Source: Candidatus Limnocylindrales bacterium (GTDB taxonomy: Bacteria; Chloroflexota; Limnocylindria; Limnocylindrales; CSP1-4). Taken from it: a stretch of 44,802 nucleotides of DNA. A program made the position numbers and the translations under genes. Positions 38,456-40,188 of the stretch are shown here, in pieces. Position 1 is the stretch's first letter. Each line of letters begins with the position of its first letter. The notes under the pieces were generated by a model that was not told the DNA's origin, made no database searches, and saw nothing but the letters and a program-made list of their open reading frames with translations. The stretch is from NCBI GenBank assembly GCA_038320305.1, contig JBBQEC010000001.1, positions 1 through 44,802 on the forward strand, given 5' to 3'.

Positions 38456-39031
38456 GTGCATGAGGCGACAGCGTTGAACGACTCAGAGCTCGCGCGAATG
38501 CACGTGGGGATAATCGCCGGAGATATTGCAGCTCAGCAGGCGTTCGAGGCTGCGGTTCGACCCTACGCGCTTGGCATCGCGACTCGACCGGGGTTGTCGA
38601 TCGATGACGCCGAGGAAATATGGAACGACGCGTTTCGCGTCGGCCTCGAGCGCGCACCGACAATCGTCCCGTTGGGTCGGCCGTTGCGTGCGTACGTGCT
38701 GTCCGTGGCGCATGCGGCGGCGGTCGACCGCGTCCGCGCTCGCGCGCGGCGCAACGCCTCCGGACTTGAAGGCGCGGAAACGGACATCGACGAGCTGTCA
38801 ATAAGCTCGGGCGCCATGACGACTTCGCTCACAGACGCGGTTATCGGTGCGATTACAACGTGCCTCGAGTCGGCGAGCCCTCTCCATCGAGAGGTAATGA
38901 CGATGACGGCAAACGGGCTGACCGCTCGCGAGATTGCGCGCATAACCGACATCACGGAGGCGAATGCGGCGAAGATCCGACAGCGAGCCCGCGAGTGGTT
39001 CAAAAACTGCCTCGGAGGAGTTGGGCTATGA
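38456..39031 (+). CDS. ECF-type sigma-70 family RNA polymerase sigma factor
   Basis: 191 aa. Region 2 'DAEEIWNDAFRVGLERA...LRAYVLSVAHAAAVDRVRARARR'. Region 4 'LHREVMTMTANGLTAREIARITDITEANAAKIRQRAREWFKNCL'. Confidence 0.8.
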   Translation: MHEATALNDSELARMHVGIIAGDIAAQQAFEAAVRPYALGIATRPGLSIDDAEEIWNDAFRVGLERAPTIVPLGRPLRAYVLSVAHAAAVDRVRARARRNASGLEGAETDIDELSISSGAMTTSLTDAVIGAITTCLESASPLHREVMTMTANGLTAREIARITDITEANAAKIRQRAREWFKNCLGGVGL

Positions 39032-39612
39032 ATGACGCGCTCGCTGAGTTGCGGCGAAGTGCGGCCGTTGAACTGGATCGACTCGATGGCTCAGAAACAG
39101 GACGAGTCGAAGACGACGCTGAGCCCGTTGACGAACTTGTCGCGGCCGCCATGTTGGACAACCCCCGATCGGACACCTGGCTGGCGGTGATCGAGGAGTT
39201 AGCACTCACTGGTCCGACCGTGGATCGGCCGGCTGGCGCGGCCGCAACCCTTGCGACGACAACTTGGTCTGCGGCGCCGGTTAGCGTGGAGCAGGCTCTT
39301 CGTGTGCCGCGCCGAGACGCGCGTATGGGTTTACGGAGCGCGTTCGCGCTGAACGTAGACGCGGCCGATGAGCTGCTCGAGCGACCAGCCGCGGCACTCA
39401 CTCAGCGGCCTCCGCAAGCTGTCCGCGCGCTTGCTCGGATCGTCGGCCGTCCTGTTGGCGAGCTGTTCGCCGATATTGCGGCATCAGCCCGCGCGAGTAG
39501 CGGCTTCGTCTACGCCTATCGGCCCGGTGAGAGCGCGACGGACCCAGCCGCTAGTCCGATCGAAAACAGCATGGATGCCCTTGTTGACTGGGGGCACGAG
39601 CTGCTCTCATAG
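39028..39612 (+). CDS. sigma-coupled acidic soluble protein (candidate anti-sigma or regulatory partner)
   Basis: ATGA overlap with the sigma stop. 194 aa with no TM segment and no Cys, so no ZAS motif. Its 3' end overlaps the convergent ImmA gene by 6 nt. Confidence 0.5.
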   Translation: MNDALAELRRSAAVELDRLDGSETGRVEDDAEPVDELVAAAMLDNPRSDTWLAVIEELALTGPTVDRPAGAAATLATTTWSAAPVSVEQALRVPRRDARMGLRSAFALNVDAADELLERPAAALTQRPPQAVRALARIVGRPVGELFADIAASARASSGFVYAYRPGESATDPAASPIENSMDALVDWGHELLS

Positions 39613-40188
39613 CTGGAAAGTCTGTTCGAGGCGGTACGCGCGCAGGGCGTACCACAAGACGAGTTCTGAAACCTCGAACCGCGGAGCGAGGTCCTTCGGC
39701 TTCCATCCACGCCCGATAAGAAACTCGAGCCACGCTTTGGGCACGAGAACGTGCCTCGCGAAGCGATTGGCCTCAGCCTCGAATGGGACCCCTACGTCAG
39801 CTTCTTCGAGCGGGACGTCTGTCGCCATCGGACCCTCGTAGCAATGCTGATTGCCGTGGCGTAGGAGCGCATGCCCAAGCTCGTGGGCGAGCGGCCAACG
39901 GTCGAAATCGCCGAGCACGATCTCGTTACGCGCCGCGTCGAAATGGGCCACGGCACCGCCGGCTAGGTCACCGCGAGCGACGGTTATGCCGTAGTGGCGA
40001 GCGATCGCGTCCAGATCGGTGGGTGCTCGTGTCTGGTTCGTCTTGTCGAGCGCCTCGCTCGCCCTCTGCTCAATGAACAGCGCGCGCGTCAGGTTGTCCA
40101 TTGGATTCGATTCATCAGTGAGACCGAAGATCGGTCGTTGCGAGCCGGGGATGTTTCGCGGCTCGGGCACGGGTTGAGGGCAGCACAT
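39607..40188 (-). CDS. ImmA/IrrE-family zinc metallopeptidase (CapP-like position)
   Basis: 193-aa ORF; the ATG at 40101, MDNLTRALF..., may be the true start. 'FDRWPLAHELGHALLRHG' is HExxH. 'EAEANRFARHVLVP' is the downstream Glu motif typical of COG2856 peptidases. Divergent from the CD-NTase operon. Confidence 0.8.
   Translation of the reverse strand: MCCPQPVPEPRNIPGSQRPIFGLTDESNPMDNLTRALFIEQRASEALDKTNQTRAPTDLDAIARHYGITVARGDLAGGAVAHFDAARNEIVLGDFDRWPLAHELGHALLRHGNQHCYEGPMATDVPLEEADVGVPFEAEANRFARHVLVPKAWLEFLIGRGWKPKDLAPRFEVSELVLWYALRAYRLEQTFQL

Follow-up and report, generated by a model that had tools for sequence, protein, structure and literature searches.

A sigma factor, an acidic partner and a minimal CapP-like peptidase form a conserved cassette that is probably a portable on-switch for immunity genes

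What controls the CBASS (antiphage signalling system based on cyclic oligonucleotides) operon, in the first 44,802 nucleotides of contig JBBQEC010000001.1 (assembly GCA_038320305.1) of a Candidatus Limnocylindrales bacterium? This stretch, analysed at its full length and referred to below as the window, is high-GC (about 63%) chromosomal DNA and includes dnaA, dnaN, yidC and jag. Ahead of its CBASS operon lie three genes encoding a sigma factor, a small acidic protein (here called the partner) and a peptidase of the M78 (ImmA/IrrE) type. A first-pass annotation had suggested that the sigma-partner pair replaces the helix-turn-helix (HTH) repressor module of other CBASS loci, and that the peptidase cleaves the partner to release the sigma factor. 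We found that these parts are conserved together, in a fixed orientation, before a changing defence cargo, and that they include two directional copies of one motif. We interpret 38380-40123, a unit of about 1.7 kb with two short cis sites, as a portable cassette that regulates the defence operon downstream of it by sigma release, and we give this reading a probability of about 0.5; the case for the cassette as a unit is strong, and the mechanism proposed for it is plausible. From left to right, its features are as follows.

38380-38430, + strand: 3' remnant (about 15 codons, ending in EAGLTDRFRDDREE) of a 126-aa gene; in DNA alignment, homology to other loci begins only at about 38380
38432-38461, + strand: motif site 1, TTGTCCAGGTCAAACGATTCATAGGTGCAT (38432-38458 reads TTGTCCAGGTCAAACGATTCATAGGTG); ends 13 nt before the sigma start codon
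38474-39031, + strand: sigma factor, apparently of a divergent extracytoplasmic function (ECF) type, 185 aa, with sigma-2 and sigma-4 regions only (from profile matches and homologue starts)
39028-39612, + strand: partner protein, 194 aa, four regions (from sequence and an AlphaFold2 model)
39607-40101, - strand: peptidase, minimal CapP-like M78 (ImmA/IrrE), 164 aa (from profile matches and homologue alignment)
40094-40123, + strand: motif site 2, TTGTCCATTGGATTCGATTCATCAGTGAGA (40094-40120 reads TTGTCCATTGGATTCGATTCATCAGTG); cargo-facing

Several elements of this layout had been described correctly in the first-pass annotation. The partner ATG is overlapped by the sigma TGA (GGGCTATGAATGAC), and the 194-aa partner (39028-39612) is acidic (isoelectric point, pI, 4.46; net charge -13), free of cysteine and soluble, with a highest 19-residue hydropathy of 0.97 and thus no transmembrane segment. 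The peptidase gene is on the - strand with its stop codon at 39607-39609, is convergent with the partner gene, overlaps its 3' end by 6 nt, and encodes the HELGH motif. Two start codons had to be moved. The + strand open reading frame (ORF) ending at 39031 is indeed the sigma gene, but its start is most likely TTG 38474 and not GTG 38456, since this is the column at which every homologue begins, preceded by a conserved GAGG. Likewise, the gene, strand and stop of the peptidase stand, but its start lies at ATG 40101 and not at 40188, because 159-aa homologues align from 40101 and the gene as called in public data also encodes 164 aa. The peptidase is divergent from the CD-NTase (cGAS/DncV-like nucleotidyltransferase) operon as annotated, but it does not adjoin it: about 795 bp separate the two.

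Genomic contexts were fetched for 17 related loci (L001-L013 and L017-L020), which represent 12 further lineages, or 13 with the window. The full triad, in which a sigma gene overlaps a partner gene that is followed by a convergent M78 peptidase gene, is present in all 11 lineages whose contig reaches all three genes (the window; L001-L004, which are one lineage; L005-L011; L013; and L020); where the gene caller had missed the peptidase, it was recovered by tblastn. Partner and peptidase are immediate neighbours in 12 lineages, that is, in every one with sufficient contig. The triad in L013, a Chloroflexia metagenome-assembled genome (9956-11602), has all three genes frameshifted, which could be due to sequencing errors or decay. 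L019 is cut by the contig end and retains the partner and a convergent peptidase; an upstream overlapping ORF, which was not scanned, is visible for 44 codons at the usual place of the sigma gene. In the most divergent lineage (L017 and L018), a 127-aa gene stands together with a sigma-like gene and the partner; the gene after these is a different one on the same strand, and the contig ends about 450 bp further on. Because the triad recurs in every related locus with a long enough contig, its arrangement is far beyond a chance neighbourhood.

The finer arrangement is conserved as well. A 4-nt ATGA or GTGA overlap between the sigma and partner genes is kept in nine lineages, with a conserved AGGAG eight to nine nt upstream, and sigma-partner overlaps also occur in L017, L019 and L020; the overlap of stop and start codons at the partner's upstream gene in every lineage speaks to gene arrangement only, not to function. 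The 126-aa gene precedes the sigma gene in all other lineages, and its remnant marks the left edge of the cassette in the window, where a tblastn search with the 126-aa proteins of other loci gave no match. The window cassette is therefore a trimmed one, with about 15 codons of the 126-aa gene and 20 codons of a DUF3892 gene left at its ends, and with the sigma, partner and peptidase genes intact.

Both the sigma and the partner families are small (11 relatives were found for the sigma factor; for the partner, 13 among 5.8 billion clustered proteins and 16 in a full profile scan of 1.84 billion representatives), and we therefore argue that the triad is co-inherited. Among species-representative genomes, partner patterns found nothing and peptidase patterns found one Chloroflexia metagenome-assembled genome; a scan of metagenomes brought in one further short contig. 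No close relatives turned up among viral contigs. In a plasmid collection the partner was absent, and the sole match was a minimal CapP of 33% identity. Genes for mobility, integrases included, do not flank the triad in the loci examined.

What the triad precedes varies from lineage to lineage. The first-pass annotation had named, as the observation on which its proposal would stand or fall, whether the sigma-partner pair and the peptidase co-occur with CBASS in related genomes. They do co-occur, and they head defence operons; CBASS is among the cargo, but it is one of six defence kinds in all. Cargo genes are found past the start of the peptidase gene and, in all cases, on the cassette's + strand.

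Window: CBASS
L001-L004 and L008: Pycsar cyclase PycC (E 1.9e-100), with a cyclic nucleotide (cNMP)-binding cyclase
L010: PycTM
L009: PDC-M36A (E 1.6e-81)
L006 and L007: Avs1b-like STAND NTPase of about 2000 aa (E 1.9e-19)
L011: HD-domain protein
L020: Multi_ubiq/E2/JAB-ThiF ('Bub'-type) operon, then a Type ISP restriction enzyme

No recognisable defence cargo lies downstream in L005. The closest spacing is found in L020, where the cargo starts 62 bp past the peptidase start, directly behind motif site 2. From this distribution, the cassette is probably a portable on-switch for immunity genes.

Two observations concern the surroundings of the cassette. In L010 (35-8319) it adjoins a separate, full type II CBASS (SAVED effector, SMODS, Cap2 E1/E2 and JAB) with an ordinary HTH protein of 280 aa and an M78 peptidase of 184 aa of its own, so that both styles of regulator coexist in one island. 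Upstream of the cassette in the window (35633-36376, + strand) is a gene for a HIRAN-domain protein with a zinc-ribbon-like N-terminus, and a homologue that is 38% identical lies upstream of the cassette in L006 (1309-1821, - strand); synteny may therefore reach beyond the triad.

The pattern TGTCC-N8-CGAT-N6-GT occurs exactly twice in the window, against 0.10 occurrences expected, and the same pair was picked up independently by a repeat finder. Site 1 lies before the sigma gene, and its position is conserved in every lineage examined at that site. Site 2 lies across the start codon of the peptidase gene, on the strand opposite to that gene; its TGTCCAT is the reverse complement of the peptidase start ATGGACA. 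Motif discovery drew on alignments of the DNA before the sigma gene and around the peptidase start, and the block at the peptidase start is invariant even where the proteins are no more than 50-70% identical. Related loci have two copies each, at the same two places and on the cargo strand; among the most divergent lineages, L013 and L020 retain both sites, L017 and L018 have site 1, and L019 has site 2, and in L020 site 2 lies about 50 nt ahead of the first cargo gene. L006 and L007 have CTGTCC instead of TTGTCC at both sites, and at site 2 this change alters a peptidase residue (MDNL to MDSL). The consensus of 24 sites is TGTCCA-N7-CGAT-tc-A-t-NN-GT. The motif is directional and non-palindromic, and stands ahead of both + strand transcription units.

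Other readings of this DNA were considered. A scan of 38100-41000 for sigma-70-type promoters found none, and an Rfam scan of 38000-41000 found no RNA family. The invariant 20-nt block before the peptidase ATG was also tried as a leaderless sigma-70 promoter, as a Shine-Dalgarno element and as a tiny upstream ORF (MNRIxWTT), each of which fits worse than a second motif copy. The shared placement of the two copies fits what would be expected of the autoregulated and target promoters of an alternative sigma factor.

The sigma gene itself is, to judge from its profile matches, that of a divergent ECF-type sigma factor. Its product scores 27.9 bits on Pfam Sigma70_r4_2, for which the cut-off is 25.7, and stays under the threshold for region 2; it also matches the TIGR02937 sigma70-ECF profile over the full model (11-165 of 165; E 2.8e-9, 36.8 bits); a further 28 ECF sigma models match weakly, and the best match among solved structures is Mycobacterium tuberculosis SigK (4nqw, E 0.0017). 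Homologues in L017 and L020 also match regions 2 and 4.

The partner protein of the window has no match in Pfam, NCBIfam or PADLOC. A first structure model from 12 sequences was poor (predicted local distance difference test score, pLDDT, 58) and was set aside; the AlphaFold2 model from a 19-sequence alignment is usable only for residues 85-157 and 179-193. Four regions can be told apart.

Residues 1-84: N-terminal region, acidic, four predicted helices, pLDDT about 40-63 (1-80)
Residues about 85-157: central helical domain, pLDDT 83-97 (85-155)
Residues 158-178: linker, flexible, low confidence, carrying Y162-A-Y-R-P-G167
Residues 179-193: terminal amphipathic helix, confident, with a conserved L..WG..LL

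In the close family YAYRPG and the W188-G189 of the tail are invariant, and in the 19-sequence family Y164 and W188 are still invariant and G189 nearly so. The family has a pI of 4.4-4.8. Its most divergent member, P0026, matches the 12-sequence profile over its full length (E 2.5e-6). Its residues 85-147, exactly the confidently modelled domain, match HTH_19 (5.3e-5) and HTH_31 (6e-4); both scores are under the Pfam cut-offs. P0026 further aligns in register with a CapH family. We consider the central domain to be probably a decayed XRE-type fold, and the layout of domain, linker and terminal helix to be probably a CapH-like architecture behind an acidic 85-aa extension. The statement of the first-pass annotation that no XRE-type HTH ORF lies beside the peptidase holds at the level of database matches. 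Within the partner, however, a degenerate XRE-like domain is probably present, and the idea of a repressor module replaced outright is too simple, since the partner is probably of XRE/CapH-like descent.

Could the partner then still be a repressor? On this account it would be a divergent CapH-type repressor with the motif copies as its operators, cleavage by the peptidase would lift repression, and the sigma factor would be an accessory that lends promoter specificity, or its gene would be among those repressed. The HTH scores and in-register CapH alignment of P0026 agree with this, as do the order of HTH, linker and terminal helix, which mirrors CapH, and the presence of the motif at both regulated sides, as for CapH operators; in addition, 24 CBASS loci listed by Lau, Corbett et al. 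2022 (bioRxiv 10.1101/2022.04.27.489752; Table S1) have a sigma-70-family gene beside capH and capP, which was not followed up there. However, a comparison of the partner family profile with a 25-member CapH family profile by hhalign returned a probability of 0.1%, and one with a single CapH was also negative, so that the partner was not assigned as a CapH; the HTH scores of P0026 lie under the cut-offs, and the motif is non-palindromic and always on the transcribed strand, unlike typical operators of dimeric HTH proteins. The helix aligned to the XRE recognition helix (DAAxELLxRPAAAL) is invariant and acidic, in a protein with an overall pI of about 4.5. Because this helix is acidic and the central domain is neutral to acidic in most members, conserved DNA binding by the partner is unlikely, and we regard the repressor account as a whole as unlikely too. 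Structure comparison was uninformative: the partner model had no Foldseek match in the PDB below E 0.5, its only XRE-type match (C.Esp1396I; template modelling score 0.49, E 6) was too weak for use as a fold relative, and its sequence profiles found nothing relevant among solved structures.

The peptidase matches Peptidase_M78 (1.8e-9) and the PADLOC capP profile (3.4e-10), the residues H73-E-L-G-H77 and E108/E110 are invariant in its family, and its only matches among solved structures are IrrE and CapP (7t5t), at a marginal E of 0.035-0.076. An invariant cysteine, Cys87, lies 10 residues after H77, between HExxH and the third zinc ligand, and is followed by acidic residues. A cysteine-switch loop occurs in many CapP proteins, though not in all; in CapP the switch cysteine is 13 residues after the equivalent histidine, and the HMMER alignment sets it three residues from Cys87; as aligned, the Cys87 loop is the region of the autoinhibitory cysteine of CapP. 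The protein lacks a GAF domain, is short (164 aa against 288-291 aa for CapP), and its match spans only positions 5-119 of the 242-position capP profile. It is by these features a minimal CapP, of the kind that has many entries in Table S1 of Lau et al. 2022. Among named proteins, its closest relative is a minimal CapP of 169 aa, encoded on the Rhizobium plasmid pRL4b1 together with an ordinary CapH and next to a Bub operon. In L010 (10167-10635) and L012 (769-1237) the peptidase gene is frameshifted at the same point, which could again be sequencing errors or decay.

CapP cuts CapH at F82-R83, in the linker before the C-terminal helix that CapP grips (bioRxiv 10.1101/2022.04.27.489752), and by analogy the partner has, in its linker and its terminal helix, the sort of elements at which a CapP-type peptidase cuts and holds its substrate. 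CapH is a DNA-binding repressor of the XRE family, and it is its C-terminal dimerisation region that is cut by CapP. The peptidase might instead act on another target (the sigma factor, the 126-aa protein or a phage protein), with the partner serving as adaptor or sensor, or inhibiting the peptidase. Its identity among loci is higher than that of the sigma factor or the partner (66-75% against 48-66%), and L017 and L018 keep the 127-aa gene and the sigma-partner pair with a different, same-strand gene next to them, as this alternative would allow. However, the contig of that lineage ends after 450 bp, so the peptidase may lie beyond it; the partner's invariant linker and terminal helix match features of the CapH substrate, and partner and peptidase are adjacent in the other 12 lineages. 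We consider a different target improbable.

Under the sigma-release reading, the cassette would work as follows. The sigma factor and its acidic partner would be made in fixed proportion from their overlapping genes, and we infer that the partner, as a soluble anti-sigma factor, keeps the sigma factor inactive. The minimal CapP-like peptidase would be held off by its cysteine-switch loop until a cue from infection or damage switches it on. Once active, it would cut the conserved linker of the partner, at a site predicted to be Y164-R165 by analogy with the F-R site of CapH. The freed sigma factor would then guide RNA polymerase to both motif copies, at site 1 for positive feedback and at site 2 for the cargo operon. 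In evolutionary terms, the partner would be a former CapH-type HTH repressor whose DNA-reading helix has turned acidic and which has gained an N-terminal extension; on this view, a switch that once worked by de-repression would now work by releasing a sigma factor.

A number of points weigh against this reading, and it needs to be interpreted with corresponding caution. The TIGR02937 score of the sigma factor is below the curated cut-off (42.9 bits). The partner has no match to an anti-sigma family (Pfam, E up to 5, 19 members) and no match to a solved structure; it has no cysteine for a zinc site, and its N-terminal region is modelled with low confidence. The GAF domain, which is C-terminal in CapP and forms half of its groove for single-stranded DNA, the peptidase domain being the other part, is missing from the peptidase. 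Some of the loci are near-identical (L001-L004; L010 and L012), so that the comparison comprises about a dozen independent lineages. The best-conserved blocks of the motif, TGTCC and CGAT, are 8 nt apart, too close for a -35/-10 pair, and were rejected as such; for a promoter, TGTCC would have to serve as the -35 element and the weaker GT, which comes 18 nt after it, as the -10 element. Such a geometry resembles that of SigR/SigH-type promoters, and CGAT would then be an extra element inside the spacer. Finally, both ends of the window cassette are trimmed, and a stretch of about 770 bp that includes hairpins lies between site 2 and the CD-NTase gene, so that the CBASS could have its own promoter.

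This last point leads to the question of whether the window cassette governs its CBASS at all. The features between the two, and the CBASS operon, are listed here.

40188-40250, + strand: DUF3892 remnant, 20 codons; in several other lineages the cargo side begins with a DUF3892 gene
40273-40297, no strand: inverted repeat GTCGTGACA-N7-TGTCACGAC, perfect over 9 bp, just after the DUF3892 remnant (read from the sequence)
40381-40463 and 40460-40579, + strand: two very short ORFs (27 and 39 aa) that overlap, each with GRFV (SGRFVRRA; TGRFVTKATAQRHPGTTV)
40616-40822, + strand: conserved membrane protein of 68 aa (73-79 aa in relatives), highest 19-residue hydropathy 1.92
40896-41966, + strand: CBASS CD-NTase (SMODS 1.7e-12, many PADLOC cyclase models)
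42022-42438, + strand: E2-only Cap2-like protein (E2 models reach 4.4e-35), start uncertain
42435-43598, + strand: TIR-SAVED effector (SAVED_TIR 1.5e-41)

It may be supposed that the triad is self-contained in defence islands and controls no CBASS, being perhaps the immunity or regulatory region of a decayed mobile element or a unit resembling a toxin-antitoxin pair, and that the CBASS has its own promoter. The truncation of both genes flanking the cassette in the window (the 126-aa gene and DUF3892) is in line with this supposition, as are the small ORFs, inverted repeat and hairpin that occupy the distance from site 2 to the CD-NTase gene, the lack of recognisable defence cargo in L005, and the fact that pairs of the ImmA/ImmR type classically govern mobile elements. 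Set against it are the orientation of the cassette and its adjacency to the first cargo gene, both of which are kept across six defence types; the L020 cargo that begins so soon after the peptidase start, behind site 2; and the lack of flanking mobility genes and of viral or plasmid relatives noted above. We regard a self-contained triad as quite unlikely, and retain the reading in which the cassette controls the operon that follows it.

How new would such a switch be? Like CapH+CapP, the cassette has an M78 peptidase with HExxH and a cysteine in the switch-loop region, divergent from the defence operon; it is portable, and found ahead of CBASS, Pycsar and Bub-type operons; and it offers a candidate substrate with a helical domain, a linker and a terminal helix. 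It differs from CapH+CapP in that the window partner has no recognisable HTH repressor domain and no CapH profile match, has an acidic 85-aa N-terminal extra and an acidic character as a whole, and shows translational coupling to a sigma factor; the genes of partner and peptidase converge, whereas capH and capP are co-oriented in one operon, and the peptidase has no GAF domain. Among the sigma-noted loci of Lau et al. 2022, the hosts checked were Proteobacteria, Bacteroidota and one cyanobacterium; these loci have an annotated CapH and, where accessions are consecutive, the sigma gene is apparently on the CD-NTase side.

A second comparison is with DdvS/DdvA of Myxococcus xanthus, an ECF sigma/anti-sigma pair that controls two CBASS systems as well as a type III-B CRISPR system (Bernal-Bernal et al. 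2024, PMC11506125). Both cases have an ECF sigma factor with a co-transcribed putative or known anti-sigma factor over CBASS operons, and for DdvS anti-sigma proteolysis is the proposed means of release (PMC11506125). However, DdvA is a transmembrane protein with a zinc-binding anti-sigma domain and a periplasmic TPR-CHAT region and is processed by RseP (PMC11506125, which also mentions the craspase class), whereas the window partner is soluble, cysteine-free and without a detectable anti-sigma domain, and the adjoining protease is a cytoplasmic M78 peptidase. In ImmR/ImmA (ICEBs1) and DdrO/IrrE (Deinococcus), too, an M78 peptidase cuts a cognate regulator to switch transcription, but what is cut there is a DNA-binding XRE repressor, neither switch uses a sigma factor, and IrrE carries a GAF domain. 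In the type III-E CRISPR craspase, the protease Csx29 cuts Csx30, which restrains the ECF sigma factor RpoE. Here, as would be the case in our cassette, a defence-linked protease cuts a soluble sigma-binding protein and so changes the activity of an ECF sigma factor; the craspase protease is, however, caspase-like and activated by RNA-guided target binding, there is no M78 peptidase and no sequence relation to the window proteins, and the sigma factor lies downstream of immune sensing, not upstream of an immune operon. CapW/BrxR and CapK+CapS are other 'controllers of associated pathways' (PMC13373217). These, too, are small regulatory cassettes before interchangeable immune operons, and the cassette behaves like such known controllers; the proteins and chemistry are unrelated, CapW/BrxR being a WYL-domain repressor and CapK+CapS a kinase with a STAS-winged-HTH repressor.

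By its sequence, then, we place the cassette in neither the CapH+CapP nor the ECF/anti-sigma family, because a recognisable HTH repressor, a GAF domain, the CapH+CapP operon layout and a recognisable anti-sigma domain are all missing. The claim in the first-pass annotation that regulation of this kind had not been described for CBASS is too broad in view of the sigma genes beside capH and capP at 24 CBASS loci and of DdvS/DdvA, but it survives in a narrower form: in the literature searched, we did not find a description of a soluble, cysteine-free, HTH-derived partner with a private ECF sigma factor and a convergent, GAF-less, CapP-like peptidase over many defence operons. Tentatively, and at somewhat less than even odds, we suggest a fourth family of controllers, in which a CapH-derived soluble anti-sigma factor without DNA binding would be cut by a GAF-less, cysteine-switch CapP, and a private ECF sigma factor would activate its own operon and the plugged-in immune operon through a TGTCC...CGAT...GT promoter of unusual geometry.

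Few regulator families are known to silence suicidal immunity (CapW/BrxR, CapH+CapP, CapK+CapS and DdvS/DdvA). If our reading is true, the cassette joins a CapP-type peptidase sensor to a sigma/anti-sigma output, with activation by positive feedback instead of de-repression, and this would account for the sigma factor noted at some capH+capP loci. Its compact size and six unrelated kinds of cargo would make it easy to test with reporters, and it could serve as an orthogonal inducible expression switch. The GAF-less peptidase also poses the question of what a minimal CapP senses.

Some details of the interval and operon remain to be given. L008 has a similar repeat, GTGACAG-N5-CTGTCAC (about 6275-6295), at the place equivalent to the inverted repeat at 40273-40297, which may be a second operator or an RNA hairpin in the cargo leader. 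The first of the two tiny ORFs has a strong GAGGAG ribosome-binding site, and the pair sits where related loci have DUF2188; neither ORF matches Pfam, and they may be candidate genes or a single frameshifted gene. A GC-rich hairpin, CGTCGGC-loop-GCCGACG (40863-40881), lies 15 nt before the CD-NTase start, is terminator-like only on the - strand, and may affect CD-NTase translation or transcription. The ORF of the E2 gene (41746-42438) could start at TTG 41863, which gives a 104-nt overlap with the CD-NTase gene, or at ATG 42022, which drops about 10 residues of the E2 model. As judged from domain content, the CD-NTase, E2-only Cap2-like and TIR-SAVED genes make up a 'type II short' CBASS. The gene after it encodes a protein like a type II restriction enzyme, with a REase_II match (43679-44539, + strand; PADLOC 1.8e-13).

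Elsewhere in the window there is a second M78 regulator, an HTH_3-Peptidase_M78 fusion of 367 aa (21613-22719, - strand; PADLOC PD-Lambda-2_B 1.7e-46). Downstream of it on the same strand are genes for a Dyp-peroxidase-like protein of 499 aa (19768-21267) and a DUF2188 protein (19477-19698; E 4.6e-22); the latter is 54-61% identical to the DUF2188 proteins that follow the cassette in other lineages and that are absent from the window cassette. Between the two M78 regions lies a gene for a 2282-aa RHS-repeat protein (RHS_repeat, DUF6531; 25511-32359, + strand), probably a polymorphic toxin, and at 24528-25358 (+ strand) a 276-aa protein is encoded that has a weak CARF-like match (6.3e-5). The window also spans the neighbourhood of the replication origin (4048-7071, - strand, and 8382-11047, + strand, with dnaN, dnaA, yidC and jag), which places the defence cluster about 30 kb from dnaA.

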